Below, piece after piece: positions 128 through 29,921 of a DNA stretch of 32,000 bases. The position numbers were made by a program, and so were the translations under genes. Source of the DNA: Methylorubrum extorquens (GTDB lineage: Bacteria; Pseudomonadota; Alphaproteobacteria; Rhizobiales; Beijerinckiaceae). Every line of letters starts with the position of its first letter. Position 1 is the stretch's first letter. The notes beneath the pieces were generated by a model that searched no databases, had not been told where the DNA came from, and saw only the letters and a list, made by a program, of their open reading frames with translations. The DNA is taken from the NCBI GenBank assembly GCA_900234795.1, contig LT962688.1, forward strand, positions 1,860,001 through 1,892,000, given 5' to 3'.

Positions 128-141
128 TTGAGGTGGATCAA
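128..141. promoter_or_regulatory. FNR/FixK-type box TTGAGGTGGATCAA
   Basis: Perfect TTGA-N6-TCAA palindrome. Its centre is about 75 nt upstream of the ATG at 209. The same 14-mer recurs at 11666. Confidence 0.7.
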
Positions 142-208
142 GGTCCGAGCCGCCGACGCGCGCAGGATGCCTTCATCTGGCCGGCGAGCCCGGCGGAGGG
201 AGGCGGGC

Positions 209-1024
209 ATGAGGATCTCCAACATCATGGTTTCGGTCGATCTCGGGTCCGCGGCCGCGGACCGCGTCCAGATGGCGGCGGGTCTCGCCGAGCGGTTCGA
301 GGCCAGGCTGACCGGCGTCGCCGCGCGCCCGATCCTCGGTCCCATGCCGGTCGGCGACATGCTGGAGGTCGAGCGCGCCTGGGCCGCCGAGGAGCGCTTG
401 GCGGACGAGCAACTGGCGGAGGCCAAGGCTCTGTTCGAGCGCGAGGCTGGGCAGGCACCCCGGACGGAGTGGCGCTCCGCCCGCGCCGATCCGCTGGCCT
501 ATCTCGACAACCAGGCGCGCGCCGCCGACGTTGTGGTCGTCGGTCGGCAAGGCCCAGCGGACGGCGACCCGGGCCTGATGGGCGTTCCGACCGGAGCCCT
601 GTTGATGGAGGTGGGGCGTCCCGTGCTCGTGGTTCCGCCCGGCATCGAGCGCCTCTTGGCGGGGCGCATCGTGGTGGCCTGGAAGGACACGCGCGAGGCA
701 CGCCGGGCGGTCCATGACGCGCTGCCGTTCCTGACCCGGGCCGACGAGGTTCACGTCGCCGTCGTCGGCCCCGACGCCAACCGCGAGGGCACTGAGGACT
801 TGGCCGCCTACCTGTCCGGGCACGGCATCAAGGCCAGCACCCACCTACTGCCGAGCCCGGCCATCGGCCCCGCCGACGAATTGCTTCGGTTCGCCCAGTG
901 CGAGGAGGCGGACCTCGTTGTGATGGGCGCCTACGGCCATTCCCGCCTCCGCGAGTGGATGTTCGGCGGTGTCACCCGCGACGTCCTACAGACGACGCCC
1001 GTCTGCTGCCTGATGAGCCACTGA
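209..1024 (+). CDS. tandem-domain universal stress protein (UspA family), 271 aa
   Basis: ORF 65..1024 trimmed to the ATG at 209, which follows GGAGGGAGG. It begins MRISNIMVSVDLGS and contains VVVG....G and GAYGHSRLREWMFGGVTRDVL motifs. The C-terminus is VCCLMSH. Confidence 0.85.
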   Translation: MRISNIMVSVDLGSAAADRVQMAAGLAERFEARLTGVAARPILGPMPVGDMLEVERAWAAEERLADEQLAEAKALFEREAGQAPRTEWRSARADPLAYLDNQARAADVVVVGRQGPADGDPGLMGVPTGALLMEVGRPVLVVPPGIERLLAGRIVVAWKDTREARRAVHDALPFLTRADEVHVAVVGPDANREGTEDLAAYLSGHGIKASTHLLPSPAIGPADELLRFAQCEEADLVVMGAYGHSRLREWMFGGVTRDVLQTTPVCCLMSH

Positions 1025-1356
1025 TGCGCCCGGCAGCCATCCTCGCGACCGGCGCTCTGGCGCTGCTTCCCGGCCTCCTCTCCCTCCCGGCGAATGCCTG
1101 GGACCGGCAGGTGAAACAGGGCGAGACCCTCGCCCGGAACAACTGCGCCCGCTGCCACGCCGTCGGGCGCGCCGGGGCGAGCCCGCTGCGCGCGGCGCCA
1201 CCCTTTCGCGAACTGCACACGCGCTACCCCGTCGAGGACCTCGGCGAGGCGCTCGCCGAGGGCATCCGAACGGGCCATCCCGGCATGCCCGAGTTCCGGT
1301 TCGACCCGGACCAGGCCGAGGCCCTGATCGCCTATCTCAAGTCCCTGGAACGCTGA
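1024..1356 (+). CDS. small monohaem c-type cytochrome with signal peptide, 110 aa
   Basis: The ATG overlaps the USP stop (TGATG). A hydrophobic N-terminus (ILATGALALLPGLL) is followed by the CARCH haem motif and HPGMP as a likely Met ligand. Confidence 0.8.
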   Translation: MRPAAILATGALALLPGLLSLPANAWDRQVKQGETLARNNCARCHAVGRAGASPLRAAPPFRELHTRYPVEDLGEALAEGIRTGHPGMPEFRFDPDQAEALIAYLKSLER

Positions 1357-1371
1357 GCGAGGAGACCCCTG

Positions 1372-2233
1372 ATGTTCCTGCGCTGCCTCCTCGTTCCTAC
1401 CGCCCCTGGTGTCGATGCTACGCGCCGGCTTGATGCAGCCCTGCGCCTGGGCCGGCGTTTGCATGCCCACATCGCCGTCAGCTTTATGGCGCCCGGCCCG
1501 GAGCACGTCATGGCCAGCATGGCGAGCCTGGTTCCCCTGGACTGCGCGACCATCGACGCCATCGGAGCGGGGCGTGCGCGAGGCCGCGGCCGAGGGCAAG
1601 GCGGCCGTCCAGGCCTGGTGTCAGCGCGAGGGGGTGCCGTTCATGTCGTCCGGCGGGCGGCTCGACGCCACCTTCGCGACCTGGGCCGAACTCTCGGGCG
1701 AAATCGAGCCGCTCCTGACCCTTGCCGGCCGGATCAACGATCTCGTCATCGTCGACCGGCCGGATCCAGGCGTGCCGTTCACGGGACGCGCACTCGACAC
1801 CGCCCTGTTCTCGGTCGGACGCCCGACGCTGATGGTCGGCCATGCCGTTCCCTACGACCTGCTCGACCACGTCATGATCGCCTGGAACGGCAGCCAGGAG
1901 GCGACGCGCCTGATCGGGCAATCCATCACGCTGCTGCACGAGGCCACCCGGGTCACCGTCCTCCAGGCGCGAACGGAGCGATTCGAGGAGGCGCCAACGG
2001 CCGACCTGTGCGCCTACCTGCGCTGGCATGGAATCGTGGCGGAGGCCGCCACCCTGGATATCGAGGGCGGGACCTCGGTCGGGGAGGCCATCCTCGCCGA
2101 GGCCGAGCGACGGCACGCCTCCATGCTGGCCATGGGAGCCTACACCCACAGCCGCGTGCGGGAGTTCCTGCTCGGCGGTGTCACCCGCCACGTCATCGAG
2201 CACGCTCGCATCCCGGTGCTCCTGGCCCACTGA
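1372..2233 (+). pseudogene. tandem universal stress protein interrupted by a frameshift near 1564
   Basis: The USP-like N-terminus (MFLRCLLVPTAPGVDATRRLDAALRLGRRL...) is in the frame of 1372. The rest (ERGVREAAAEGKAAV...GAYTHSRVREFLLGGVTRHVIEHARIPVLLAH) is in the frame of 1409. High third-position GC switches frame at about 1563-1565. Confidence 0.6.
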
Positions 2234-2298
2234 GGCATCGGGCCTGCAAGGAACGAAGAGTAAAGGCTATCCAAGGACGGGCCGGGGCAACTTCCCGC

Positions 2299-2574
2299 TT
2301 ACCGCCGCGGGTTGTGACAATGCATGTGCGGAGGCGCCGTGCCGCAGTCCAGGCTACAGGTCTGCCCAGGCTTGCAGAACCATTGCAGGGTGCCGCTCTT
2401 CAGGCAGGCGCCTGAGCAGTGGAGGTGCGGCGCGTTCTCGGGCTCGACGAAGGTGCCCTTCGCATCCGGGGAACGAGCCGGTCCCTGCGCTTGGACGGTC
2501 GATGCCTGCGACGTGCACGCAACGAGGACCAAGAAGGCCGTGCATGCCTTCGCCGTATGCGCGGTGACGGGCAT
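2299..2574 (-). CDS. small secreted or lipoprotein-like Cys-rich protein, 91 aa
   Basis: The ATG immediately follows the upstream USP stop (CAC TGA ATG on the minus strand). The signal-like segment AFLVLVAC has a lipobox-like LVAC. The mature part has 6 Cys and a His-rich tail. Third-position GC is high. Confidence 0.55.
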   Translation of the reverse strand: MPVTAHTAKACTAFLVLVACTSQASTVQAQGPARSPDAKGTFVEPENAPHLHCSGACLKSGTLQWFCKPGQTCSLDCGTAPPHMHCHNPRR

Positions 2575-3384
2575 TCAGTGGCTCATCAGGCAGCAGACTG
2601 GGCAGCCGGCGAGAAGGTCCCGGGTGACGCCTCCGAACGCCCACTCGCGCAAGCGGCCGTGGCCGTAGCCACCCAAGACGATGAGGTCGGCAGCCTGCTC
2701 GGAGGCCGCCTCGATCAACGCATCCGCGGTCACGGCGCCATAGGCGTCCCTGTGGACCGCGGTGGCGTCGACGTCGTGCGCCTGCAGGAGGCCGATGACG
2801 TCCCGCGTGTCGTCCGACCCCTTCCCTTCGTCGACGGAGATCACCACGACCTGGGAGGCGCGCTTCAGGAAAGGCAGCGCATCCCGGACGGCGCGGCGCG
2901 CCTCGCGGGTGTCCTTCCAGGCGACCGCGACGCGCTTGGCGTCGAGGTGGCCAACCTTGGGCGGGACGACCAGCATCGGCAGGCCGAGCCGCATCAGGGC
3001 ATCCCCGGGATCGACCGACATGAGTCGGCTGCCATCGTCGCCACGGCCCACGACCAACAGATCGGCGGCCGCCGATTGGCGCGCTAAAAATGCTGCGGGG
3101 AAGTCGAGGTTCGAACGCCACTCGACACGGCTACGTCCGCCGCCGGCCTCCTCGAAAGCCTCGTGGGCCAGCCTGAGGTCGTTCAGGACGGCTTCCTGGA
3201 CGGAGCCGATGCAGTACGCGCTTCCGAGCGTCGGACCGACCGGTACGGCCTCGTAGGCCGGCATCTCCGCGGCGACGCCGATCAGGCGGGCATTGAAGTC
3301 GTCCGCCAAATGACCGGCGAGCCTGACGCGCTCGCGCGCATGCTCGCCGAGGTCGACCGCCACCATGATGCTTGCGTACGACAT
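2575..3384 (-). CDS. tandem-domain universal stress protein, 269 aa (alternative start 3399)
   Basis: Begins MSYASIMVAVDLGEHARERV and contains GGYGHGRLREWAFGGVTRDLL. The C-terminus is VCCLMSH. A GGAG lies 7 nt before the ATG at 3384. Confidence 0.85.
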   Translation of the reverse strand: MSYASIMVAVDLGEHARERVRLAGHLADDFNARLIGVAAEMPAYEAVPVGPTLGSAYCIGSVQEAVLNDLRLAHEAFEEAGGGRSRVEWRSNLDFPAAFLARQSAAADLLVVGRGDDGSRLMSVDPGDALMRLGLPMLVVPPKVGHLDAKRVAVAWKDTREARRAVRDALPFLKRASQVVVISVDEGKGSDDTRDVIGLLQAHDVDATAVHRDAYGAVTADALIEAASEQAADLIVLGGYGHGRLREWAFGGVTRDLLAGCPVCCLMSH

Positions 3385-3469
3385 AGGGGGCTCCGCCATG
3401 TGAGTGGTAACGGGGCGCAGGGATGCTGCCCGGACGGGCGAAGCTCACGGCCTCGCCAGGCCGGCCGGG

Positions 3470-4117
3470 TCAGCCCAGCGTCAGGTGGTCCTCGACGGCG
3501 CGCACGCCCGGAGCCGACCAAGCCGCGTTCTCGGCAAGGCGGCGCTCGTACCAGGCGTTCACCTTGCCCTCCAGGACGACCTTGGCGTCCTTGACCGTCA
3601 CCTTGATCGCATCCGCCTCAAGCTCGGCGTTACGCTTGAGCGCCGCCATGATCTTCGCGCGCACGTCGGGCACGCTCGCCCTGGGCGCCACCTCGATGGC
3701 GTTCATGATGCCGGCTACGCCCGCGAGCCGCCGGATCGCCCGGTAGGCCTCCTCCTTCTGGTACTGCCAATCGACCTTACCGCTGAGCGTCACCCAGCCG
3801 TCCTGGACCTTCACCTGCACGGCGCCCTTAGGCACCGTCGCCGACCAGTCCAGCATCTGCACGGCGCGTTGGGCGATGTCCTCGTCGCGCGGCGGCGTTT
3901 CGCCGTCGAAGCGCACCTGGATCTCCTCGACCACCCCGCGCACGCCGCGCACCTTCTGGGCCGCCTTCTCGGCGGCCACGCGCTCCGTGTAGCTACCGAC
4001 GTGACCGGTGAGCGTGACGATGCCGTTCTCCACGGCGACGCCGATGTTGGCAGCGTCGATGCTGGGATCGAAATCGAGCTCGTCGATGACGTTCTGGCGG
4101 ATCAGCTTGTCGCCCAT
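3470..4117 (-). CDS. BON-domain (OsmY-like) protein, 215 aa
   Basis: ORF 3470..4204 trimmed to the ATG at 4117, which follows GGAGA. Repeated BON-type segments are present (V.V.NG.VTLTG.V......A....A..V.GV..V). Confidence 0.8.
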   Translation of the reverse strand: MGDKLIRQNVIDELDFDPSIDAANIGVAVENGIVTLTGHVGSYTERVAAEKAAQKVRGVRGVVEEIQVRFDGETPPRDEDIAQRAVQMLDWSATVPKGAVQVKVQDGWVTLSGKVDWQYQKEEAYRAIRRLAGVAGIMNAIEVAPRASVPDVRAKIMAALKRNAELEADAIKVTVKDAKVVLEGKVNAWYERRLAENAAWSAPGVRAVEDHLTLG

Positions 4118-4166
4118 CGTTCGTCTCCTCGATGAGGTCCAGGTCGCGCCTGGCCGAAGCCGATGC

Positions 4167-4619
4167 TTACGCCCGGCAGGCGGTCGGACATTGATCCAGC
4201 GCAACGGCCTCGCCGACCGCGATCCGATCCAGCATCGGACAGGCGCAGGGGCAGCCCGGGACCGCGCAACGGGCGCTTACGGCGGAGACCATGTCCCGGG
4301 CATCGAACAGCCGGTCGAACCTCGGCACGTCCGAGAAGGCGTCCGGGACGCGTGCGTTTCCAGAGATCAGCGCGAAGGGGACGCCCCGGCGGCGCAGGGC
4401 GCAGGCGAGCGGGAAGCAGGGCCCCTGGTTCAGGTCGACGCTGACGACCGCGAAGTCTGGCGGCTTCTCTTCCAGGCTCTCCGCCGCATCCTGGCAAGTG
4501 GCGTAGGGCCCGCTGACGGCACAGCCGGCGTCGGCGAGCACGTCCTCCAGCCACATGCCCGGCAACGCCTGAGGCTCCGCGACCAGTACGACCGGTCGTC
4601 CCTCTCTTCCGCCATCCAT
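4167..4619 (-). CDS. single-domain response-regulator receiver-like protein with a Cys-rich tail, 150 aa
   Basis: CheY-like layout: VVLVAEPQ...DFAVVSVDLN...FALISG. The acidic pocket (EP instead of DD/ED) and the conserved Lys position (RLF instead of KPF) are degenerate. The tail reads CAVPGCPCACP....QCPTAC. Confidence 0.6.
   Translation of the reverse strand: MDGGREGRPVVLVAEPQALPGMWLEDVLADAGCAVSGPYATCQDAAESLEEKPPDFAVVSVDLNQGPCFPLACALRRRGVPFALISGNARVPDAFSDVPRFDRLFDARDMVSAVSARCAVPGCPCACPMLDRIAVGEAVALDQCPTACRA
4191..4204. promoter_or_regulatory. FNR/FixK-type hybrid box TTGATCCAGCGCAA
   Basis: Its centre is about 80 nt upstream of the BON start at 4117. An identical 14-mer occurs at 6554. It lies inside the 3' end of the receiver ORF. 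Confidence 0.65.
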
Positions 4620-4684
4620 CGCCCGATTCCTAATTCAGGTTGCGGCAGTGCGAGGATGGACCGGTTGGCCCGGGGCGCGTTGCG

Positions 4685-6016
4685 CTAGATCAAGGGAAGC
4701 GCCGCCGTCATCAGCATGGCGAGAACCGCGAGCAGCATGCAGGCTGTGGCGACCCAGCCGAGCAGCTTGAGGGGACCTCGCACCGCGAAGGCGCCCATGA
4801 TGTCGGTGCGCGCCGCCGCCATCATCATCACCGCCATGACCGGCACCGCGATGACGCCGTTGACGACTGCGCTCCAGTAGAGCGCCCGGATCGGGTCGAC
4901 CGCGCCCAGGCTGATGACCATGCCCACCAGCGTGGCGAGCGCCACCGTCCCGTAGAAGGCGCGCGCCTCCAGCAGGCGCCGGCCGAAGCCAACGGGCCAG
5001 CGCCGCGCCTCGCCGACCGCGTAGGCCGCCGAGCCCGCCAGCACTGGAACTGCCAGAAGTCCGGTCCCGACGATGCCAAGGGCGAAGACAGTAGCGGAAA
5101 ACGGGCCAGCCAGCGGACGCAGGGCCTCCGCCGCTTGGGCCGAGGTCTGGATGTCGGTGATACCACGCGGGTGCAGCACCGCGGCGGCGGTAACCATAAT
5201 GGCGAGCGCCACGAGATTCGAGAAGGCCATGCCGACCAGCGTGTCGATCTCGATGCGGTGGAGCGCCGCGCCACCCTGTTCGGGCGCGTGCAGGAGGTCG
5301 CGCCGGCGCGGATAGGCGTGCAGGTCCTCGGCCTCCTCGGCGGCCTGCCAGAAGAACAGGTAGGGGCTGATCGTGGTGCCGAAGAGGGCCACCAGCGTGG
5401 TCAGGGCGCCGCCACTGAGGTTGACCTTCGGGATGGCGAGCGCCGCGCCAAGGTCCCACCAAGAGACGCGGGCAAAGATCACCACGCCGAGATAGGCGAA
5501 CAGACTCAGCGTCAGCCACTTCAGGACGGCGACGTAGCGCGTGTACTGAAGGACGAGCTGCATGAAGGCGCAGATGCCGGCGAAGAGGACCACATAGAGC
5601 CAGCGCGGGCCCGGCAACAGCAGGTTCAGCGCGTCCGCCATGGCGCCGAGGTCGGCCCCGAGGTTCAGGATGTTCGCGGCCAGCAGGAGCACCACCACGG
5701 CCTGGAGCAGGCTGTTCGGATAGTGCTCGCGCAGCACCCGGGCGATGCCGTGGCCGGTGGTGCGCCCAATCCGGGCGGAAACCATCTGAACCGCCGCCAT
5801 CAGCGGCAGGGTGTAGAGCATGGTCCAGCACAGGCCGTAGCCGAACTGGGCTCCCGCCTGGCCGTAAGTGGCGATGCCGCTGGGGTCGTCGTCCGAGGCA
5901 CCGGTGATCAGGCCGGGGCCGAGGACGCGCAGCAGGCGCGGCTTCGAAGGGCCGACGGCAGGGCTCGGCACCTCCGGGTCGTCGGCCTCCTCGGCCGCGA
6001 CGGACGGGACGCTCAT
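4685..6016 (-). CDS. NRAMP-family divalent metal cation transporter, 443 aa
   Basis: Contains GPGLITGASDDDPSGIATYGQAGAQFGYGL and many TM segments. High third-position GC is confined to this frame. Confidence 0.85.
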   Translation of the reverse strand: MSVPSVAAEEADDPEVPSPAVGPSKPRLLRVLGPGLITGASDDDPSGIATYGQAGAQFGYGLCWTMLYTLPLMAAVQMVSARIGRTTGHGIARVLREHYPNSLLQAVVVLLLAANILNLGADLGAMADALNLLLPGPRWLYVVLFAGICAFMQLVLQYTRYVAVLKWLTLSLFAYLGVVIFARVSWWDLGAALAIPKVNLSGGALTTLVALFGTTISPYLFFWQAAEEAEDLHAYPRRRDLLHAPEQGGAALHRIEIDTLVGMAFSNLVALAIMVTAAAVLHPRGITDIQTSAQAAEALRPLAGPFSATVFALGIVGTGLLAVPVLAGSAAYAVGEARRWPVGFGRRLLEARAFYGTVALATLVGMVISLGAVDPIRALYWSAVVNGVIAVPVMAVMMMAAARTDIMGAFAVRGPLKLLGWVATACMLLAVLAMLMTAALPLI

Positions 6017-6270
6017 GCCATCGACTTCGACGCCGAGGCCTTCGCTTCGGCACGGACCGTGCGTGCGACCCGAAGGGCCGCCGCGAGGTCGTCGCCGTCG
6101 GTCCCGTAGCGGCGGCGGAGATCATCGAGCCAACCAGGTCGGCCGTCCTCGGCGTCCGGGATGTCGGCGAACGGCACGTGGTACATGCCGTCGAGCGCCT
6201 CGATCCCGTAGCCGGTGACGGCCCACTGCCGGCCCTGCCAGTGCACGGGTTCGGTGAGTTCGTAGCTCAT
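6013..6270 (-). CDS. hypothetical protein, 85 aa
   Basis: ORF 6013..6573 trimmed to the ATG at 6270, preceded by GAGGAGG. Its stop overlaps the NRAMP start (ATGA). Sequence begins MSYELTEPVHWQGRQWAVTGYGIEALDG. Confidence 0.55.
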   Translation of the reverse strand: MSYELTEPVHWQGRQWAVTGYGIEALDGMYHVPFADIPDAEDGRPGWLDDLRRRYGTDGDDLAAALRVARTVRAEAKASASKSMA

Positions 6271-6280
6271 GCCGGCCTCC

Positions 6281-6496
6281 TCAGGCTGCTTGCCGGGTGA
6301 GTTCGGCGACCTCGCAGGTATCGGCCCGCATCCGCCAGTCGACGACGCCGCAAGCCTCGCACAGCATCGCCTTGGCGGCGAACGCGGCGGCGATGTCCGA
6401 GCGGGCGGTGACGACCGCCTGCTGCTGCAGGACGCGATGGTCGTGCCCGGTGTCGTCCGGGACGGTCTTATGGAAGGTGACGAGGTACTCGCGCAT
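6281..6496 (-). CDS. hypothetical protein, 71 aa
   Basis: First gene after the box at 6554. A GGAG lies 8 nt upstream of the start. Sequence begins MREYLVTFHKTVPDDTGHDHRVL. Confidence 0.5.
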   Translation of the reverse strand: MREYLVTFHKTVPDDTGHDHRVLQQQAVVTARSDIAAAFAAKAMLCEACGVVDWRMRADTCEVAELTRQAA

Positions 6497-6553
6497 GGCT
6501 CGACTCCGTTTGCCGGTGAGGGCGAAATCTGCGGCCGGCTGGTCCGGCCGGCC

Positions 6554-6567
6554 TTGATCCAGCGCAA
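6554..6567. promoter_or_regulatory. FNR/FixK-type hybrid box TTGATCCAGCGCAA
   Basis: Its centre is about 65 nt upstream of the ATG at 6496. The sequence is identical to the box at 4191. Confidence 0.65.
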
Positions 6568-6579
6568 GGGCACCGGCGC

Positions 6580-7098
6580 TCAGGTGCCGGTCGTCGGCGG
6601 AAAGAGGCGTTCGCGGCCAGGCTCCCCGTCTGCCGGACTGCGGGCTTTCGCGGCACGGTGGGCGCGCGCCTTTCCGTGGAGCGGCCAGTAGCGTTCCATG
6701 GCGAGGTAGGTGAAGGAAGCCGACCAGCCGATCAGGAGCAGGCCGTTGAGCGCCTCGACGCCGGTGAGAAGGCGGGCGTGGCCGACGGGCGCGTGGTCGC
6801 CGTAGCCAAGCGAGGAATAGGCGACCACCGAGACGAACAGGCAGTCTTCGAACGTCGTCACCGGCACGCCCGAGAAGCTGCCGAGGCCGAGCCTCAGGAC
6901 GAGCAGCCAGTAGGCGATGGCGTAGATCCAGACCGCGACCGTATGCCCGGCGAAGGCGGCGAGCACCACGGCGACGATGCGCCAGCGCGGCGGCACCGGC
7001 AGTTCGGCGAGGTGCTCCGAGGTCAGGCGCAGCGTCTCGTAGAGCACCAGGATGGTGACCATGACGAGGACGATGCTGGCGGCGAGGACGACAAGCAT
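6580..7098 (-). CDS. two-TM potassium-channel family protein, 172 aa
   Basis: Selectivity-filter-like SSLGYGD lies between hydrophobic helices. Confidence 0.75.
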   Translation of the reverse strand: MLVVLAASIVLVMVTILVLYETLRLTSEHLAELPVPPRWRIVAVVLAAFAGHTVAVWIYAIAYWLLVLRLGLGSFSGVPVTTFEDCLFVSVVAYSSLGYGDHAPVGHARLLTGVEALNGLLLIGWSASFTYLAMERYWPLHGKARAHRAAKARSPADGEPGRERLFPPTTGT

Positions 7099-7208
7099 GA
7101 TGATGGTTCGAAGGAGGGGCCTGAAAGAAGCCTGCCTAACCTGCCGTCGGCCGCCTTGACCTGCCTCAAGCCTGCCGTCCCAGCTACCGGGGCCGTGCCG
7201 GACTCGCC

Positions 7209-7222: not shown

Positions 7223-7292
7223 CGCGGCCCCCGCTCCATTGGCGTCTCCTGCCTCAATGTGCCCATTCCCGGGCGTCCGGCAGGAGGCGATC

Positions 7293-7532: not shown

Positions 7533-7599
7533 CGGAACCGCTCGACGCCCCCGCACTCGAAGGGGCGTCGCGACAACAGGCAGATCGAGGAGACATGTC

Positions 7600-7977
7600 A
7601 TGTCCCAGGCAGGTAGGCAGGTCACGCCCCCGCCGTCGGGTGGGAGAGCGGACGAGATCCAGATCGACATCTTACAGCACGCTGCCGGCATGGCGCTGGT
7701 ACTGGCTGCATGGGTGCTGGTGTTCGCTGACCAGGGCCGGGCGGCCTTCTTCGCGCTCATGCCGGGCCTGCTGATCCTCGCGCTCACCGGATGCAACCGG
7801 ATTCGCTTCCGTCCCGCCCTTGAGAAGGCGGTCGTACTCGCTGGGGCGTGGACGGTTCTCACGCCTTTCCTATTCGGCTTCGCGGCCAACGATGCCGCTA
7901 CCTGGGCGCACGTCGTGGCCGGAGCCGTGACTGTGGCGGTCGCCACGAGGCGGCTCAGGATCGCGAGGGCGTCATGA
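7600..7977 (+). CDS. SPW-repeat-like small membrane protein, 125 aa
   Basis: ATG at 7600 follows GAGGAG. Two hydrophobic hairpins are present. AWTVLTPFLFGFAANDAATWAHVVAGAV resembles an SPW repeat with TPF in place of SPW. Confidence 0.45.
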   Translation: MSQAGRQVTPPPSGGRADEIQIDILQHAAGMALVLAAWVLVFADQGRAAFFALMPGLLILALTGCNRIRFRPALEKAVVLAGAWTVLTPFLFGFAANDAATWAHVVAGAVTVAVATRRLRIARAS

Positions 7978-8351
7978 TGGCCGCGTCGCCCCGATCCGCT
8001 CGCGTTCTTGCGCTGGGCGGCCTGCTCGCGAGCGTCGCTGGCGCGCCGGCCATAGCCGGTCCAACTGAGGACCATCGCGTCCGGGGCTGGACCATTGCCA
8101 CGCAGCTCTGCAGCCAATGCCACGTGATCGGCCGTGCGGCACAGCCGGGCGAGTTCGTCGGTCCGGCCTTCGTCCGAGTTGCGGAGATGCCTTCCACGAC
8201 AGGGCCGGCGCTGGCCGTCTTCCTGCAGAGCCACCACGAGCAAATGCCGAGCCTGCGGCTCGACCGCGACGAGATGGAGGCGGTCATCGACTATATCCTC
8301 AGCCTCAAGACCGAGAGGACGGCTCCTGCGGGCGCGAACCAGGAGGATTGA
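7974..8351 (+). CDS. small monohaem c-type cytochrome with signal peptide, 125 aa
   Basis: ATGA overlap with the preceding gene. Contains the CSQCH motif, and HHEQMPSLRLDRDEMEAVIDYILSL parallels the C-terminal half of the 1024..1356 protein. Confidence 0.8.
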   Translation: MMAASPRSARVLALGGLLASVAGAPAIAGPTEDHRVRGWTIATQLCSQCHVIGRAAQPGEFVGPAFVRVAEMPSTTGPALAVFLQSHHEQMPSLRLDRDEMEAVIDYILSLKTERTAPAGANQED

Positions 8352-8353
8352 GG

Positions 8354-9341
8354 ATGCCGCCGCCCTATCCGGTTCTTCTCGCGGACATCGGCGGCACCTA
8401 TGCCCGCTTCGCCGTCCTCACGTCGACGGGGGGCTCGGCCGGCTCCGATCTGGAAGGTGCCGACGGCCAGCTTCCGCACCCCCCTCGATGCCCTGCAGGT
8501 CTATCTCGACGAACCGAGAACACCACGGCCGCGCTCCACCTGCCTCGCCGTCGCCGGGCGCGTCGCCGGCGGCGTCACGCGACTGACCAACGCGCCCTGG
8601 CGGTTCGACCTCGACGGGATCGGCGTCGCGCTCGGACTGGAAGCGGTGCGGCTGGTCAACGATCGCTCGCCGGGGTCCTCGGCATCCTCGAAGAGGACGA
8701 CCCAGCCGACTTGGTACGGATAGGAGCGGCGGTCGCGGGCACCGGCCCGCGGCTCGTTCTCGGCCCGGGCACGGGCCTCGGCGCAGCGGCCCTGATCCCC
8801 GCTGGCGACCACCTCCTGATACAGAACACAGAGGCCGGGCATGTCGGCTTCGGCCGCTGCGAGCGGGACGACGGTCTGCCGTGGTCCGAACTGATGCCGG
8901 CAGGGGGTAGGCTCGCGGCCGAGACCTTGCTGTCCGGTCCCGGCCTCGTAAGGCTCGCTCGGGCCGTCGCGGCGGCGCGGCATGACGGTCGCCTGGAATG
9001 CGCCGCCGGAGGTGCTCGAAGCGGCCGAGGACGATCCGGTCGCAAGCGAAGCGGTCCATCGGTTCGCGCGCCTGGTCGGCCGGTTCGTGGGCGACCTGGC
9101 GCTGGTGTTCTCGGCGACCGGCGGCACCTACCTCGCCGGCGAGACCGCCCCCGCATCGTCGAGGTCCCGCGAGACGGGGGCGCTCGGCGCCGCATTCGAG
9201 GAAGAGGACCCGTTCCGGGAGGCGATGCGGGCCGTTCCGCGCTTCGTGATCACCCGCCCGGAGCCGGCCATCGACGGCTTGGCGGTGCTCCTGCGCGACG
9301 AGAACCGGTTCCTGTACTCCGGCCAGGACTGGCGGGCTTGA
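8354..9341 (+). pseudogene. glk: glucokinase, multiply frameshifted
   Basis: MPPPYPVLLADIGGTYARFAVL is in frame 2. FRTPLDALQVYL...CLAVAGRVAGGVTRLTNAPWRF...VRLVND is in frame 0. DLVRIGAAVAGTGPRLVLGPGTGLGAAALI...NTEAGHVGF returns to frame 2. PEVLEAAEDDP...GDLALVFSATGGTYLAGE and FREAMRAVPRFVI are in frame 0, with a short excursion (PRIVEV) around 9140-9175. Confidence 0.75.
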
Positions 9342-9351
9342 GGCAGGTCAA
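9338..9351. promoter_or_regulatory. FNR/FixK-type box TTGAGGCAGGTCAA
   Basis: Perfect TTGA-N6-TCAA. Its centre is about 70 nt upstream of the ATG at 9414. It overlaps the glk remnant stop. Confidence 0.65.
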
Positions 9352-9413
9352 CGCCATCCCGCCCGGGCGGCCGCACCGTGATGCCCGCCCTCTACGGGCC
9401 GAGGGAGGCTCCC

Positions 9414-10232
9414 ATGTCCATTGTCAGCATCATGGTCGCGGTCGACGACGGGCGCCACGCATCGGCGCGGGTCCGGCTCGCCGCGGGACTCGCGCACCGC
9501 CTCGGCGCCCGCCTCATCGGTGCAGCCGCCTACATGCCCGACTACCCGCAGGGCTACGGGGAAACCGCCGTGCCGATGGGCATTGTCATTGAGGAGATCC
9601 GCCAAGCCGCCCTCGCCAGGCTCGCGGGCACCGAGCGGTCGTTCCGGAACGCCTCGTGGCTAAACGACCGCATCGAATGGCGCTCCGACCTGACCGCCCC
9701 AGTCCGGTTTCTTAAGGACCAGTCCCGAGCGGCGGACCTCGTCGTGGTCGGGCTCTGCGCGGACGACGAAGGGGTGGCGGATGGCATGGCGGTCGACGTC
9801 GGCGACGCGTTGATGGGGCTGGGCCGGCCCGTCCTCGTCGTCCCGCCTGGCGTCGAGCACCTGGAGGCCGGACGCGTCATCATCGGCTGGAAGAACACCC
9901 TGCAGACCCGCCGGGCTGTAACTGACGCCATGCCGATCCTGCGTTGCGCCGAGGCCGTCTGGGTGTTCCGGATTTCCGATGGCAAGGACCGCGCCGAGGT
10001 CGAGGATGTGGTTCGCTACTTGTCGCTGCACGATGTAAACGCGACGGCGCATCCGGCAAAGCCTTCGGGCTGGACCGTCGCCGACGAAATGCAGAAGGCG
10101 GTGCGTGACTTCGACGCCGACCTGATTGTGGCCGGCGCCTACGGCTACAGCCGCCTGCGGGAGTGGTTCTTCGGCGGGGTCACACGCGACCTGCTGGCGA
10201 AGCCTTCCGTCTGTTGCCTGATGTCGCACTGA
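9414..10232 (+). CDS. tandem-domain universal stress protein, 272 aa
   Basis: ATG follows GAGGGAGG. Begins MSIVSIMVAVDDGRHASARV and contains GAYGYSRLREWFFGGVTRDLL. The C-terminus is VCCLMSH. Confidence 0.85.
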   Translation: MSIVSIMVAVDDGRHASARVRLAAGLAHRLGARLIGAAAYMPDYPQGYGETAVPMGIVIEEIRQAALARLAGTERSFRNASWLNDRIEWRSDLTAPVRFLKDQSRAADLVVVGLCADDEGVADGMAVDVGDALMGLGRPVLVVPPGVEHLEAGRVIIGWKNTLQTRRAVTDAMPILRCAEAVWVFRISDGKDRAEVEDVVRYLSLHDVNATAHPAKPSGWTVADEMQKAVRDFDADLIVAGAYGYSRLREWFFGGVTRDLLAKPSVCCLMSH

Positions 10233-10257
10233 ACAGAGCGAGCGGTCATCTCCATCC

Positions 10258-11115
10258 TCATTGGCCTTGGCACGGCCAGGCATCGTTGGCCGACCCGGGA
10301 CGTGCTCCCGGGCCCACGACACCGGCTGAAGTTCGGATCCGTGCCAGACCGGTCCCGCATGACAAGGAAATTTCGGAGCCCGGCTCAGTCGCGGCTCGCC
10401 CTGCCAGGTGTAGGTAGCCCGCATCGAAATCGGCGTAGGCGGCGAGCCGGCTGGGCTTGGGCACCTTCACCACCCCTCTTTCCAGCCTGATCAGGCCGGC
10501 GTCCTGAAGAGCGTGCAGCACCCGGTTCACGTGGACCAAGCAGACCGCGGCGAGATCGGCGATGACGCCTTGGCGTATCCCTCCCGAGAAGGCGTCGACG
10601 GCGGCCATGCCGGTGGCCTCGGACCGGGCCAGGATTTCGCAGACGAAATGCGCGATCCGCCGCTCAGCTTCCAGACCGCCGTTCGCCAGCCACTGCTGCG
10701 CGATGCCGAGCTCGACGAGGGCCAGCCACCACAGGGCCCGCCCGATGCCGGGATGGTCCCCGATCAGGGCTTCCAGGGTACGGAACGGGACGTCGGCGAC
10801 GAGGGACGGCGAGAGCGCCCCGAGTGAGCCATGGTGCTTGGCCGGCGAAGCCGAGTGGCCGCCGCAAAGGTCGCCCGGGAAGAACAGGCCGACGATGCTG
10901 CGGGTGCCGTCGGACAGCATGTGGTAGCGGCAGGCCACCCCGCGCAGCACGAGGTGCGCGGCTTGTGGGTCCTGCTTCAAGCCGATGTCGGCACGGGCCG
11001 GCACCAGCCGTGGTCGGAGGCGCAGGGAGAGGATGGCTTGCCGCTCGCGCTCGCCCAGCGTGCCGGCCTCCTCCAGCCGCCGGACGAGCCTCGCGAGCGG
11101 TTCCCGCGTTGGCAT
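10258..11115 (-). CDS. Crp/Fnr-family transcriptional regulator, 285 aa
   Basis: cNMP-binding-like fold (LVLRGVACRYHMLSDGTRSIVGLFFPGDL) with an HTH ending in VHVNRVLHALQDAGLI and the family-typical FDAGYLHL. It is a paralogue of 29155..29919. Confidence 0.75.
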   Translation of the reverse strand: MPTREPLARLVRRLEEAGTLGERERQAILSLRLRPRLVPARADIGLKQDPQAAHLVLRGVACRYHMLSDGTRSIVGLFFPGDLCGGHSASPAKHHGSLGALSPSLVADVPFRTLEALIGDHPGIGRALWWLALVELGIAQQWLANGGLEAERRIAHFVCEILARSEATGMAAVDAFSGGIRQGVIADLAAVCLVHVNRVLHALQDAGLIRLERGVVKVPKPSRLAAYADFDAGYLHLAGRAATEPGSEISLSCGTGLARIRTSAGVVGPGARPGSANDAWPCQGQ

Positions 11116-11594
11116 CAGGGCGCCTTGATCTCAATGCGCTTGGTCTCACGAGCGGCGAGGACGGTCTTGGGCAATCTCACCGTGAGGACGCCCTTGTCCA
11201 TGCTGGCCTCGATGTCCTCGGGCCTGATACCAGCCGGCAGTTCCAGCGTGCGCATGAAGGAGCCGTAGGCCCGCTCTGTGATCTTCCGGGATCCTTCGGT
11301 TTCGTCCCTGTCCTGCCGCTTCTCGCCGCTGATGACGAGCATGTCGTCGGCGAGCTCGATCCAAATGTCCTCGCGAACGAGGCCCGGCAACTCGGCGGTG
11401 ACTTCGAAGTGTCCGTCCTTCTCGACGACATCCATGCGTGGCACGGCAGCACCCTGCAGGAGCGGCGGCAGACCGAAACGGAGATCGCCGAACATCTGGT
11501 TGGCCAGTCGCTGCAGAAGCAACATCATCGCTTGATGGTCGGACATCGGCGCCCCGACACGGTCACCGAGGGTGAGGAGCGATCTGAGGTTCAT
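11115..11594 (-). CDS. Hsp20/alpha-crystallin small heat-shock protein, 159 aa
   Basis: Contains FEVTAELPGLVREDIWIELADDMLVISGEK....YGSFMRTLELPAGI....I.ASMDKGVLTVRLPK. Its stop overlaps the Crp start (TGATG). Confidence 0.85.
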   Translation of the reverse strand: MNLRSLLTLGDRVGAPMSDHQAMMLLLQRLANQMFGDLRFGLPPLLQGAAVPRMDVVEKDGHFEVTAELPGLVREDIWIELADDMLVISGEKRQDRDETEGSRKITERAYGSFMRTLELPAGIRPEDIEASMDKGVLTVRLPKTVLAARETKRIEIKAP

Positions 11595-11665
11595 GGTCTA
11601 GTTCCGGTCAGGCGGCCCTGATCGCGCCGCCGGTGGGAGGCTGGCGCCGCCTCGACCGTTCGGCC

Positions 11666-11679
11666 TTGAGGTGGATCAA
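11666..11679. promoter_or_regulatory. FNR/FixK-type box TTGAGGTGGATCAA
   Basis: Identical to the box at 128. Its centre is about 79 nt upstream of the hsp20 ATG at 11594. Confidence 0.7.
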
Positions 11680-11966
11680 TCAATGAGCGCTGCGGCGGCG
11701 TACACGCACCAAAGGGGCCCGGACCCTGAGCGCTCCGGGACGTGGGCGGCGTTCGTTCAAACCACAAGTCAAAAATTGCAAATGGTCGCCATCGATTATT
11801 TCAATGGGCAGCAATGTCTAAAATGAATCTTCTCATGGCCAACTATTGCAAATAAATGCCACTTGAAAATCGCGCGCGCCAATCGATCTCATGGTGCGAG
11901 GTCGCAGATCCGCGTCCTTGCTGCCGGCTCACGGCGCCTCGATGCTCTTCCGAATGAGACAGAGCC

Positions 11967-12425
11967 ATGTCACGAATGCTGGACCGCTCGCGGACCATCC
12001 GCACGCGAAGGGGCCGAGCCCTGGTTTTCGCCGCCGTGCTCCTCGCCGGTACCGGCCCCGCGACCACAGCCTTTGCGGGCGATGCCGCCGCAGCGCCGGA
12101 GGTCGGGATCGTGACCGTCGAACCGAGGCCCGTGACCCTGATCAAAGAACTGCCCGGTCGGGTCACGCCCATGCGCATCGCCGAGGTGCGTCCGCGCGTC
12201 TCCGGCATCATTGTCGAGCGCGCTTTCCAGCAGGGCAGCGTAGTCAAGAAGGGCGAAGTGCTCTACCGCATCGACCCGCTGCCCTTCGAGGTCGAGCTTG
12301 AGAGCGCCAAGGCTCTGACTCCATCGCGCCGCCCGGGCCCGCCTCCGCGACCTGGCGACCGACTATGCCCGGGAGAGCGACTGATGCGACCCGGTCCGCC
12401 CTCAGCCTGCTGGCCGCTTTCGTGA
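11967..12425 (+). pseudogene. RND efflux periplasmic adaptor (MFP) 5' stub
   Basis: A signal-like N-terminus is followed by VTVEPRPVTLIKELPGRVTPMRIAEVRPRVSGIIVERAFQQGSVVKKGEVLYRIDPLPFEVELESAKA. Homology then degrades across frames (RLRDLATDYARE is seen in another frame) and is lost. No RND pump gene follows. Confidence 0.65.
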
Positions 12426-12727
12426 CCGCAGCTTCACTGTGCAACCGCACACTCCGCGATCTCCGCCGGCAGGCTCCTTCTCTCCCCCGTACCCGGTCCA
12501 CCGGGATCTCAGTCCCGAGGAGACCGTCCTCCTTGCCGAGAGCGCGCCTTCACCAAGGTCGTCATCGTCGCCGTCTGGCCCCGGACGTCCCAGGAGGACG
12601 TCGCCCGCCTCGCCATGGCCTGGGCCGCCTACACTCCCTGGCTTCCACCCGAGTTCTCCTGGTACTCATGTCGGCTCAACTCACTGCTGCGTTCAGTGTA
12701 GATGGACGGCATTGCGTGGAGCTCGCG

Positions 12728-13753
12728 TCAAATAACGGCCGGACTCTGACCTGAAGTTCGCGGATTGCACGCCGCCGTATAAGCTTTCGGCGTGCTCCCG
12801 ATTACGTCCTGGATGCGGCAGCTCGCTGGTTCGAGCAGGGCTGTGACGTGGGCCTCCACCGAGCGCGCCAGCCCCACCAAGTCGTAGCCGCCTTCCAGCA
12901 GCGAGACGATGCGCCCGTCGCACTCCCGATCGGCAATGTCTGCGAGCCGTTCTGTGGCCCACCGGTAGTCCGCTTCAGTGAGCGCGAGGTCGGACATTGG
13001 GTCGCGCCAGTGCGCGTCGAAGCCGGCGGAGATCAGGATGAGATCAGGCCGGAACGCCGCGATGCGAGGGAGTACCATCGTGCGGAGCGCCTCACCGAAC
13101 ATGGCTCCGTCCGCCCCGGCCGGAAGCGGCACGTTCACGATCGTGCCGTGCTCGCCACACTCTGACGCCGCGCCCGTGCCGGGGTAGAATGGCCATTGAT
13201 GGGTCGAGCAGAAGAGCACGGTCGGGTCGCTCCAGAAGATCTCTTGGGTGCCGTCTCCGTGGTGAGCGTCCCAATCCAGGATTGCGACGCGGCCTGCACC
13301 ATGCGCCGCCTGGGCGTGACGCGCGGCGACGGCGATGTTGTTGAAGAAGCAGAAGCCGGCGGTCCGCGCCCGGCCTGCATGGTGCCCGGGCGGCCGCATG
13401 GCCGAGAAGGCATTGCGAACGGTGCCCGTCATGACTTCGTCTACGGCCTGCACCGCAGCACCGGCACTGCGCAGCACAGCCTCCAGCGTGCCAGCCGAGA
13501 CGTGTGTGTCTTCGTCTACAGGCGCGATAATGCCGTTCTGCAGACCAGCAATCGTAGCCTCGACGTAGGTCTCCTCATGCACGCGGGTCAGCGCAGCCTC
13601 AGAGACGACCGAAGCTTGCTCGCGTACGAGACCAGCGAAGCGCTCCTGTTCCAGGCAGCGCTCGACGACCCGGATGCGGTCGGCACGCTCGGGGTGCCAT
13701 GCAGGTCCTAGGTGGGCAAGCGCCGATCCGTGTGTGAGGTGCAGGGTCGTCAC
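12728..13753 (-). CDS. histone deacetylase / acetoin-utilisation (AcuC/Aph)-family amidohydrolase, 341 aa
   Basis: Contains RPPGHHA....GFCFFNN, ILDWDAHHGDGTQ, SAGFDAH and LEGGY motifs. Confidence 0.85.
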   Translation of the reverse strand: MTTLHLTHGSALAHLGPAWHPERADRIRVVERCLEQERFAGLVREQASVVSEAALTRVHEETYVEATIAGLQNGIIAPVDEDTHVSAGTLEAVLRSAGAAVQAVDEVMTGTVRNAFSAMRPPGHHAGRARTAGFCFFNNIAVAARHAQAAHGAGRVAILDWDAHHGDGTQEIFWSDPTVLFCSTHQWPFYPGTGAASECGEHGTIVNVPLPAGADGAMFGEALRTMVLPRIAAFRPDLILISAGFDAHWRDPMSDLALTEADYRWATERLADIADRECDGRIVSLLEGGYDLVGLARSVEAHVTALLEPASCRIQDVIGSTPKAYTAACNPRTSGQSPAVI

Positions 13754-14031
13754 CTATAACCTCCCGCTTAAATCACGTTGTTCTTTCCGTACGATGGCTT
13801 TCGCTCCTCAACGCAGATTTGGAAAGGGCGTTGGGATCAGTGGCAGCATTCATTGGCCCGTCCACAGACGCGGAAGGCATTAAACAGGTGGCAAATTGAG
13901 AGTTCCACCCAAAGGTTTGAAGCTAGCGCTCTCAAGAGCTTTCCAGCACACAGCGCGAAATGAAGCCCGCTTCATTGGCGCCAGCTTTTCAGATCCTGCG
14001 CCAGATTAAGAGGCGGGTATCCGCCGCGTCG

Positions 14032-14045
14032 TTGATGTGGATCAA
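14032..14045. promoter_or_regulatory. perfect FNR consensus TTGATGTGGATCAA, with no gene at the usual distance
   Basis: Exact TTGAT-N4-ATCAA. The nearest starts are 13753 (-, about 285 nt away) and 14482 (+, about 440 nt away). Confidence 0.5.
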
Positions 14046-14173
14046 GACTGGCATTGGCGAAAGGGCCGGCGCGTGCGAGCAGGAGTGGGCTTCCCAAAGC
14101 TCGTACTCGTGAGGCGTAGAACAAGCATGCCAAAGTTACAGGCACACCGCTACGGACAGGAGAGGAGTCCAGC

Positions 14174-14370
14174 CTATACTTGAGCTTGGTCTGATTGTAA
14201 CCACAGCGTGCTCGGATGGTTCGTTCTGATGCCTTCCGCCGACACCTCAGCGAGTTCCGTCATCAAGTAGCGCGTGTGAAAGGCGCGGAAGCGTGACGCT
14301 ACAGGGGAAGGACGCTCGCCCGACCGCGTGGCCGCGGGCGTTCGGCCAGTTTCTGACCTTCTACCCAGCC
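14174..14370 (-). pseudogene. decayed paralogue of the small cytochrome c genes
   Basis: The minus strand reads SPVASRFRAFHTRYLMTELAEVSAEGIRTNHPSTLWLQSDQAQV*. Compare SPLRAAPPFRELHTRYPVEDLGEALAEGIRTGHPGMPEFRFDPDQAEAL in 1024..1356. Upstream pieces (EGQKLAER, GHAVGRAS) lie in other frames and the CxxCH motif is lost. Confidence 0.6.
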
Positions 14371-14395
14371 TGTGGACGCATTCCCGGGGAAGCTC

Positions 14396-14409
14396 TTGCG
14401 CTGAATCAA
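14396..14409. promoter_or_regulatory. FNR/FixK-type hybrid box TTGCGCTGAATCAA
   Basis: Its centre is about 80 nt upstream of the sulP ATG at 14482. On the gene strand it has the same architecture as the boxes at 4191 and 6554. Confidence 0.6.
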
Positions 14410-29919: not shown

Positions 29920-29921
29920 CC

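Follow-up and report, generated by a model that had tools for sequence, protein, structure and literature searches.

The 32,000-nucleotide (nt) stretch of Methylorubrum extorquens DNA analysed here, referred to below as the window (contig LT962688.1 of assembly GCA_900234795.1, positions 1,860,001 to 1,892,000), contains an island of operons for universal stress proteins (USPs), Hsp20, a BON-domain protein, small cytochromes c and ion transporters, which are linked into one regulon by recurring boxes of the FNR/FixK type. This linkage had been proposed in an earlier note made from the letters of the same DNA, and it was borne out by the site scores, their enrichment, placement and conservation, the occurrence of the boxes at classic targets and the co-expression of paralogous genes. 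The region belongs to the accessory genome of M. extorquens, where it forms a gene cluster of mosaic make-up that is present in AM1 and DM4-like strains, and is most likely a horizontally assembled gene cluster for survival at low oxygen. Its operons are probably subject to class II activation by FNR/FixK-type regulators of the host under oxygen limitation.

The eight boxes listed in the earlier note were all confirmed in position and sequence, and two real boxes absent from it were found at 4680 and 7156, giving ten genuine boxes in 15.6 kb of the window. A third additional match to the weight matrix described below, at 12132, lies within a truncated RND adaptor open reading frame (ORF) and is probably due to chance. 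The ten boxes, with the distance from the box centre to the start codon, are as follows.

128-141, TTGAGGTGGATCAA, 74.5 nt upstream of USP1 and the USP1-cytochrome c-USP2 operon (plus strand)
4191-4204, TTGATCCAGCGCAA, 80.5 nt upstream of the BON-USP3-orf91 operon (minus strand), inside the 3' end of orf150
4680-4693, TTGCGCTAGATCAA, 67.5 nt upstream of orf150 (minus strand), overlapping the NRAMP stop codon
6554-6567, TTGATCCAGCGCAA, 64.5 nt upstream of the orf71-orf85-NRAMP operon (minus strand)
7156-7169, TTGACCTGCCTCAA, 64.5 nt upstream of the channel gene (minus strand)
7209-7222, GTGATCCAGATCAA, 77.5 nt upstream of the operon headed by a biotin/lipoyl-like ORF (plus strand)
9338-9351, TTGAGGCAGGTCAA, 69.5 nt upstream of USP4 (plus strand)
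11666-11679, TTGAGGTGGATCAA, 78.5 nt upstream of the hsp20-crpA operon (minus strand)
14032-14045, TTGATGTGGATCAA, probably serving the histone-deacetylase-family gene via a 285-nt leader
14396-14409, TTGCGCTGAATCAA, 79.5 nt upstream of SulP (plus strand)

The pattern TTGA-N6-TCAA with at most one mismatch was matched 19 times in the window compared with 4.2 expected, a number reached in none of 100 shuffles, and 11 of the 19 matches fell between 128 and 14409. The weight matrix was built from the sites bound by R. sphaeroides FnrL in chromatin immunoprecipitation on microarrays (ChIP-chip; PMC2908626, Table 2), a source chosen to avoid circularity, and was applied with a cut-off of at least 12 bits. 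It gave 11 matches in 1-15763 and none in 15764-32000. In 1000 simulations of the island with a first-order Markov model, matches averaged 0.30 and never exceeded 4. The ten boxes scored 13.4-24.0 bits, the best being box 14032 at 24 bits, and the FnrL ChIP sites themselves scored 11.4-24.8 bits. All ten match the FixK2 consensus TTGA/C-N6-T/GCAA, save for a G at position 1 of box 7209. The earlier assignment of the boxes to the Crp/FNR family is therefore upheld by the fit to consensus and by scores inside the range of sites bound by FnrL in vivo. Three pairs of boxes share a 14-mer (128 and 11666; 4191 and 6554; 7156 as the reverse complement of 9338). Because the flanks of the identical 14-mers are unrelated and no longer repeat contains them, the boxes represent independent sites.

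The same cluster was found in Methylobacterium sp. Leaf123, at 88-91% nucleotide identity to the window, and in a Logan contig (L020) whose CrpA is 88% identical. The eight boxes shared by these three genomes were all invariant at 14 of 14 positions, and the surrounding promoters had invariant-column fractions of 0.68-0.99; the boxes stood out as invariant blocks in the most diverged promoters, namely the divergent region between the channel and biotin/lipoyl-like genes (0.68) and the promoter of orf150. The hsp20 promoter together with the 60 nt past its box (11592-11740) was 99% invariant in the three genomes compared with 68-90% for neighbouring promoters, which may point to additional regulatory content or to a recent recombination event.

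In nine boxes the distance from the centre to the first start codon downstream is 64.5-80.5 nt; among these are the seven of eight that had been described as lying near starts (74.5, 80.5, 64.5, 77.5, 69.5, 78.5 and 79.5 nt). The remaining box, at 14032, is 285 nt upstream of the histone-deacetylase-family gene, and the M. currus homologue of this gene has a strong box 157 nt upstream. Every transcription unit in 128-15763 has its own box, with the exception of the truncated RND-adaptor fragment (11967-12425). No sigma-70 consensus promoter coincided with the box promoters, as is expected of activator-dependent promoters. A set of 31 box promoters without orthologues among them, taken from the window and from further Methylobacterium loci, was oriented towards the respective genes. 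The A/T fraction was 0.61 (19/31) at +30 and +31 from the box centre, compared with a background of about 0.28 (binomial p ~1e-4), and close to 0.5 at +34 and +35, and C was strongly preferred at +29. This signal is suggestive of a -12/-11 ... -8/-7 element, which would place the box centre at approximately -41.5, the class II position; leaders of about 22-40 nt would be predicted from such an arrangement.

Some boxes carry a TTGCG(C/A/T) half-site, which was promoter-distal in 11 of 13 oriented boxes (p about 0.01, one-sided). Boxes of this kind are 4191, 6554 and 14396 (and 4680) in the window, 1388 in the AM1 locus L015, 12048 in the core-genome locus L019, 13135 and 18492 in the AMS5 locus L021, and 2675, 3243, 5474 and 7528 in locus L011. 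The exact 14-mer TTGCGCTGGATCAA recurs at unrelated promoters. The TTGCG-type boxes may form a sub-class that is read by a particular paralogue.

The residues Glu-x-x-Ser-Arg (E--SR) of the recognition helix read TTGA in FNR and FixK. Neither this motif nor the FNR Cys cluster was found in any of the three Crp-family proteins encoded in the window, which are listed here with their lengths in amino acids (aa).

10258-11115, minus strand, CrpA, 285 aa (Pfam HTH_Crp_2), recognition helix LVHVNR, start codon overlapping the hsp20 stop
18344-19033, minus strand, CrpB, 229 aa, cyclic-nucleotide-monophosphate (cNMP)-binding, recognition helix YFTVSR
29155-29919, plus strand, CrpC, 254 aa, recognition helix AVHVSR, paralogue of CrpA (34% identity) in a segment of 52-58% GC

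With the models of FnrL, Fnr and FixK the three proteins reached 43-74 bits. CrpA gave 43 bits against FnrL and Fnr and 33 against FixK, where the cut-offs are 228-300; the equivalog cut-offs of NCBIfam were too strict to classify any regulator, and relative scores alone were used. In the same library the host protein P0039 reached 152 bits and the FixK of AMS5 reached 210 bits. CrpA was therefore rejected as an FNR or FixK protein on the basis of its helix, the lack of a Cys cluster and its low family scores, and is assigned only to the Crp superfamily. Its family contained 39 proteins at E<=1e-10 among 5.8 billion, and those with a named source all came from Methylobacterium or Methylorubrum. 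Four related loci were recovered through CrpA in genome contigs. A general tie between CrpA-like proteins and box clusters was also rejected, as loci L008 and L009, with regulators 38-46% identical, are without boxes. CrpC shares the unusual helix type of CrpA and its C-terminal NYLHL motif, and no FNR/FixK box was found near it. CrpB is unrelated (26% identity) to an equally long FixK-type protein (229 aa) of the core cluster; together with a DUF6894 gene it forms a pair (17906-19033, minus strand) that is also found beside SulP and ISMex11 on the conjugative plasmid of Methylobacterium sp. XJLW.

P0039 is a canonical FNR-type protein that has a Cys cluster at its N-terminus (CAHDRSERGCAACKVRLVSVC) and TIETVSR as its recognition helix, and is encoded beside cydABX, cydDC and a USP-cytochrome c pair. 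Its cluster at 90% identity includes proteins of DM4 (CAX23595.1), AM1, PA1, AMS5 and Leaf123, which places an E--SR regulator in the same species as the boxes. A FixK-type protein with the same helix and no Cys cluster is encoded beside FixLJ-like genes in AMS5. In PA1 the FNR-type gene corresponds to Mext_1357, and the FixK-type gene and fixLJ are deduced to correspond to Mext_3505-3507. As the Crp proteins of the window are without E--SR and canonical regulators are present in the core genome, the boxes are most likely read by the FNR and/or FixK of the host, with crpA among their targets.

The same boxes precede well-known microaerobic genes elsewhere in Methylobacterium. M. currus has a plasmid on which the NRAMP operon, with a nucleotide identity of 84%, lies within a microaerobic cluster of fixL, fixJ, ccoNOQP, ccoGHIS and hemN, together with ompW, a USP-cytochrome c pair and three regulators with the E--SR helix. 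Box variants including TTGCGCTGGATCAA are centred upstream of ccoN (75.5 nt), ompW (79.5 nt), the USP gene (72.5 nt) and the NRAMP operon (65.5 nt), boxes precede hemN and ccoG as well, and the orthologous NRAMP promoter retains TTGATCCATCGCAA. The M. extorquens core-genome locus L019 has three pattern matches in 20.7 kb, of which one lies in the divergent cydAB/cydDC promoter and one is 87.5 nt upstream of the USP-cytochrome c operon. A locus of M. bullatum with a USP-cytochrome c-fnr arrangement (L014) has its box about 440 nt from the USP start and was therefore not counted among the supporting cases.

The expression of related clusters is documented in strain PA1, where only 23 genes in six clusters were differentially expressed in a formaldehyde-tolerant subpopulation (Lee et al. 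2019; PMC6858071, Table 1). Expression was raised in tolerant cells that were growing, and most of the 23 genes were strongly down in poisoned cells; no connection of the signature with oxygen or FNR/FixK was drawn by the authors. One of the clusters, Mext_1355-1363, contains a USP, a cytochrome c, a cNMP-binding regulator, cydDC and cydABX, and another, Mext_3498-3508, contains in order Hsp20, a Crp/Fnr-family regulator, UspA, a hypothetical protein, BON, a second hypothetical protein, UspA, Crp, a FixJ-like protein, a PAS kinase and UspA (PMC6858071). These two clusters account for 20 of the 26 genes listed for the tolerant subpopulation. Locus L019 is the counterpart of Mext_1355-1363, and locus L021 of AMS5 matches Mext_3498-3508 gene for gene and in gene lengths, with two exceptions (the Crp/Fnr-family gene at 840 compared with 861 nt and a 74-aa ORF at 225 compared with 222 nt). 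In L021 the operons that responded (hsp20-crp, the 74-aa hypothetical gene with BON, and two genes for 286-aa USPs) are preceded by boxes at 75.5, 65.5, 63.5 and 62.5 nt, and in front of the FixLJ-like genes, which did not respond, there is only an AT-rich sequence resembling the box; over both loci the boxes are 62.5-87.5 nt upstream of responding operons. The island proteins are paralogues of these core-genome products: Hsp20 (70% identity), CrpA (57%), USP1 (54%, to the USP encoded beside fnr), cytochrome c (76%), USP3 (68%, to the USP of the AMS5 core cluster), the product of orf66, a 66-aa ORF left of the window (51%), and BON (73%). The paralogous clusters with boxes were thus co-expressed in PA1. 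The signature would fit a draw-down of oxygen, with the genes up in respiring cultures and down in poisoned cells that do not respire.

On the preferred reading, a drop in oxygen or respiratory capacity would cause one or both E--SR regulators, the Cys-cluster protein encoded beside cydABX/cydDC and the FixK-type protein encoded beside FixLJ as in the related AMS5, to bind the boxes and recruit RNA polymerase. The genes predicted to be switched on are those for the USPs, Hsp20, BON, small cytochromes c, NRAMP, the K+ channel and SulP and, left of the window, those for phosphoketolase-acetate kinase, alcohol dehydrogenase, a MIP channel and an ATPase-inhibitor zeta subunit, whose products would jointly enable an obligate aerobe to survive anoxia or hypoxia. 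CrpA would be a box-controlled target in the hsp20 operon and probably a second regulatory tier; it belongs to a Crp subfamily restricted to Methylobacterium, with a V-H-V-(N/S)-R helix, and is translationally coupled to hsp20. More tentatively, and with a probability below one half, the island may be a pre-wired, transferable add-on to the host FNR/FixK regulon, in which CrpA forms the second tier and to which the PA1 signature also belongs. Its modules, equipped beforehand with the near-universal TTGA-N6-TCAA box, would then move between Methylobacterium chromosomes and plasmids and be correctly expressed on arrival.

Several points weigh against control by host FNR/FixK under oxygen limitation. 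The protein that binds, the oxygen signal, the transcription start sites and the physiological role of the island are deductions, and the sequence of the boxes cannot separate FNR from FixK or Dnr/NnrR-type proteins. The FixK-type gene was seen in AMS5 and is deduced for PA1. The PA1 experiment varied exposure to formaldehyde and not oxygen, and the boxes linked to its expression data were read from AMS5 and a further M. extorquens strain in place of PA1 itself. The -10-like signal is of modest strength, and the opposite-direction control has a smaller bump at +30. The background density of boxes was taken from about 47 kb of other DNA of the M. extorquens group (3 matrix matches, two or three of them at plausible targets).

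The other explanations differ from the preferred reading in the protein, the signal or the reality of the sites. If CrpA, or CrpC as its paralogue, were the main reader of the boxes, the island would form a closed module that activates itself and does not depend on host FNR/FixK. This would agree with the position of crpA behind a box in the hsp20 operon, both in the island and in the core cluster, and with the confinement of its family to Methylobacterium-like genomes; the TTGCGC half-site class, promoter-distal in 11 of 13 oriented cases, could also signal another specificity. However, CrpA has LVHVNR in place of E--SR and reaches only 43 bits against the FnrL and Fnr models, the loci of more distant CrpA homologues (L008, L009) are without boxes, and boxes of the same kind, TTGCGC types included, occur on ccoN, hemN and cydAB and on FixK2 targets of Bradyrhizobium, which lacks CrpA. 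In addition, R. sphaeroides FnrL binds TTGCGcaggATCAA in vivo, and a TTGCG-type half-site is bound by it at hemN (PMC2908626), and control by CrpA or CrpC is considered unlikely. An equally improbable variant is that the sites are true Crp/FNR-family sites that respond to nitric oxide via a Dnr/NnrR-type paralogue, or to energy, redox or formaldehyde-related stress. The sole expression data for related clusters are from formaldehyde experiments (PMC6858071), Dnr/NnrR-type proteins recognise near-identical boxes and a USP is part of the predicted DNR regulon (PMC2908626), but the co-regulated set of PA1 holds the cytochrome bd oxidase and the cydDC exporter, the M. currus boxes are on the cbb3 oxidase, hemN and fixLJ neighbours, and the Cys cluster of the FNR-type protein is typical of oxygen-labile Fe-S sensors. 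The PA1 pattern is also consistent with the oxygen draw-down suggested above.

Control of the island by the PhyR/EcfG general stress response, with the boxes secondary, is very improbable. USP, Hsp20 and BON proteins are typical general-stress cargo, but the EcfG-type pattern GGAAC-N15-18-CGTT was found once in the 32 kb compared with 0.78 expected, and this match, at 17929, is outside the island promoters. The exact recurrence of some 14-mers could be taken to mean that the boxes are chance matches or copies of a duplicated promoter or repeat. That explanation, to which almost no weight is given, is effectively refuted by a count that no shuffle matched, by the unrelated flanks of the identical boxes and by their conservation inside diverged promoters. 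Activation by the FNR/FixK-type regulators of the host is therefore retained as the probable mode of control.

The gene content of the island was established from Pfam and NCBIfam scans and from gene calls on identical public contigs. The cargo described in the earlier note is present (four two-domain USPs, BON, Hsp20, NRAMP, an Ion_trans_2 channel, two small cytochromes c and SulP); the CrpA gene, a decayed glucokinase and the continuation of the island past the left end of the window were absent from it. In addition to the regulators above, the genes and elements are as follows.

209-1024, plus strand, USP1, two-domain, 271 aa (Pfam Usp)
1024-1356, plus strand, small cytochrome c, 110 aa, start overlapping the USP1 stop (TGATG)
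1372-2233, plus strand, USP2 (Pfam Usp), last gene of the operon, frameshifted relative to its 286-aa orthologue in L020
2299-2574, minus strand, orf91, 91 aa, directly downstream of USP3, without family match
2575-3384, minus strand, USP3, 269 aa (Pfam Usp)
3470-4117, minus strand, BON-domain protein, 215 aa with three BON domains (Pfam BON, E 1.9e-50)
4167-4619, minus strand, orf150, 150 aa, weakly like a single-domain response regulator (NCBIfam PRK13435, 38.5 bits, far under the cut-off)
4685-6016, minus strand, NRAMP divalent-metal transporter, 443 aa (Pfam Nramp, E 7e-80)
6013-6496, minus strand, orf71 and orf85, small ORFs heading the NRAMP operon, with the same three-gene order on the M. 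currus plasmid
6580-7098, minus strand, K+ channel-like protein with two transmembrane segments, 172 aa (Ion_trans_2)
7293-8351, plus strand, operon of a biotin/lipoyl-like 79-aa ORF, an SPW-repeat membrane protein and a cytochrome c (125 aa)
8355-9341, plus strand, glucokinase pseudogene, Pfam matches in three reading frames
9414-10232, plus strand, USP4, 272 aa
11115-11594, minus strand, Hsp20/alpha-crystallin protein, 159 aa (Pfam HSP20, E 1e-23)
12728-13753, minus strand, histone-deacetylase-family protein, 341 aa (Pfam Hist_deacetyl, E 1e-89)
14482-15763, plus strand, SulP anion transporter, frameshifted only in the window and intact (426 aa) in DM4
16271-17370, minus strand, IS3-family insertion sequence (IS), ISMex11-like, at the right edge of the box-bearing block, with more IS copies beyond

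Frameshifts interrupt the glucokinase gene in the window and likewise in AM1 and DM4, but it is intact (327 aa) in L004 (Logan assembly SRR21970170). The frameshift in SulP could be a real mutation or an assembly error. The possibility that orf150 corresponds to the 'host attachment' protein at the equivalent position of the core cluster was rejected, as the two are unrelated. A scan for intrinsic terminators detected none, which is uninformative on operon ends, and no Rfam family reached its gathering score in the window, so that there is no match to a ROSE-type thermometer for hsp20. In the leader between box 14032 and the histone-deacetylase-family gene there is a perfect 7+7 palindrome (13960-13975, ATGAAGC-CC-GCTTCAT), which overlaps the start of a 31-codon upstream ORF.

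Positions 256-19833 of the window are 99.93% identical to the DM4 chromosome (FP103042.2, approximately 4.41-4.43 Mb), the match stopping at 19834 owing to an IS insertion. AM1 (CP001510.1, locus L015) encodes a USP1 protein identical to that of the window, and in this strain the island extends at least 10 kb beyond the left window edge, its left end not being reached in the AM1 DNA covered, which begins at CP001510.1:3939010. The cargo in this part comprises a Zn-alcohol dehydrogenase (ADH), a second BON protein, orf66, phosphoketolase, acetate kinase, a MIP (aquaporin-family) channel, a third BON protein and the ATPase-inhibitor zeta subunit. Positions 1-10000 of L015 contain 4-5 additional boxes, including the following.

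383, at the far end of the AM1 locus
1388, 74.5 nt upstream of BON
4184, 71.5 nt from a start codon
7938-7951, TTGAGGTGGATCAA, between the divergent xfp-ackA and orf66-BON-ADH operons, 63.5 and 64.5 nt from their starts

The last of these is situated some 2 kb to the left of window position 1 and resembles an activator site that both operons share, acting in the two directions. Counting the part left of the window, the whole cluster spans at least 25 kb with about 15 boxes. The island is therefore larger than the block of about 15 kb described in the earlier note.

A patchy distribution, links to mobile elements and a mosaic structure were all found. The SulP-IS-DUF6894-CrpB segment recurs on the XJLW conjugative plasmid, the M. 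currus plasmid holds a histone-deacetylase-like gene as well as the NRAMP operon, the RND efflux operon adjoining hsp20 is truncated in the window and intact in L020, and the island genes are 45-76% identical paralogues of core-genome genes. No tRNA gene or integrase was found in the window, which thus has no tRNA integration site, and the GC content of 1-11 kb is not atypical. Further to the right, a perfect inverted repeat of 1281 nt (19834-21114 and 27777-29057) is formed by two IS3-family copies (orfA/orfB, rve domains), which enclose 6.6 kb encoding an amine oxidase, a saccharopine-dehydrogenase-like protein, a Rnk/GreA-like factor and another IS. This arrangement looks like a composite transposon, and the homology to DM4 ends exactly at its left IS3 copy, within a cytochrome c gene cluster that is uninterrupted in DM4.

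M. extorquens serves as a model methylotroph and as a chassis for industry, its growth being obligately aerobic, and no description of a low-oxygen regulon in this species was found in the literature searched. For the study of survival during oxygen depletion, which is relevant to leaves, biofilms and dense fermentations, the island supplies promoters and candidate regulators as well as cargo, part of which is a route to ATP via phosphoketolase-acetate kinase together with an ATPase inhibitor, and its natural promoter set provides candidate microaerobic-inducible parts. If the wider reading is true, the unexplained 23-gene signature of formaldehyde tolerance in PA1 (USPs, Hsp20, cytochrome bd, acetate kinase) would be an FNR/FixK low-oxygen regulon. 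The island would also be an example of box-bearing modules that are shuffled by IS elements and plasmids yet plug into a conserved global regulator.

One close parallel is the lxa locus of Burkholderia cenocepacia J2315 (BCAM0275a-BCAM0323; Sass et al. 2013; PMC3721108). Among its 50 genes are those for six USPs, one alpha-crystallin and two proteins that bind phospholipids, and a sulfate transporter gene. The locus has a TGA-N6-TCA motif at 17 intergenic points in 50.7 kb, is induced at low oxygen and is needed for anoxic persistence, its deletion mutants being less viable after long anoxia, and its authors invoked both Anr/Fnr and the DosR regulon (PMC3721108). The island resembles it in being a contiguous cluster of an obligate aerobe with USPs, alpha-crystallin, BON-type proteins, a sulfate transporter, electron-transfer or fermentation-type enzymes and regulators, and in its intergenic inverted repeat (10 per 15.6 kb in the island compared with 17 per 50.7 kb). 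Four USPs, Hsp20 and BON were found in the window and two more BON proteins to its left, with 10 plus 4-5 boxes. The resemblance is one of gene families and motif only. The two belong to different classes of the phylum, and the island is smaller, denser, flanked by IS elements and partly plasmid-borne elsewhere, and also encodes NRAMP, a K+ channel and small cytochromes c. Induction at low oxygen and a role in survival are measured properties of lxa and predictions for the island.

Another close parallel is the FixLJ-FixK2 regulon of Bradyrhizobium diazoefficiens, for which the consensus TTGA/C-N6-T/GCAA and box positions mostly 59-89 nt upstream of starts have been described (PMC9104804). FixK2-dependent units include phosphoketolase-acetate kinase, hspC2, a USP (-72), a host attachment protein (-69), an RND adaptor (-75), a cytochrome c and blr1289 (PMC9104804), and the FixK2-dependent box of blr1289 is identical to the island 14-mer TTGATCCAGCGCAA at 4191 and 6554. 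The similarity extends to box variants with TTGCGC half-sites, target families and start-codon distances, several FixK2 targets lie in one neighbourhood (bll4634-blr4654; PMC9104804, PMC6515984), and the M. extorquens group has a FixLJ and FixK-type (TIETVSR) set. The island differs in being without fixNOQP or a nif context and in having the additional CrpA, CrpB and CrpC without E--SR, and its dependence on FixK is a prediction. For the FNR regulon of alphaproteobacteria, Dufour et al. (2010; PMC2908626) predicted uspA and ompW to be part of the core, and a reduced FNR regulon with a dominant FixK regulon for the group containing Methylobacterium. Most of the island cargo lies outside the core. 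The dense clustering of boxes, called unusual in the earlier note, has precedents.

DosR is a NarL/LuxR-type response regulator with its own DNA motif, and its regulon is dispersed and not a single island. The likeness to it is functional only, consisting of many USPs, an alpha-crystallin and transporters in an obligate aerobe that survives hypoxia. Identity with the DosR regulon was rejected, as the boxes are of the Crp/FNR type and no NarL-type regulator was present among the ORFs of the window, in which a DosR-like core pattern occurred 11 times compared with 13.9 expected, showing no enrichment. The parallel drawn in the earlier note therefore survives as a functional resemblance, one already drawn for lxa (PMC3721108), and not as DosR-type control. 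The concept of a hypoxia cluster of USPs, small heat-shock proteins and BON proteins controlled through FNR-type boxes is known from Burkholderia, Bradyrhizobium and Pseudomonas, and the cluster described here is a compact, mobile-looking example of this already known type.

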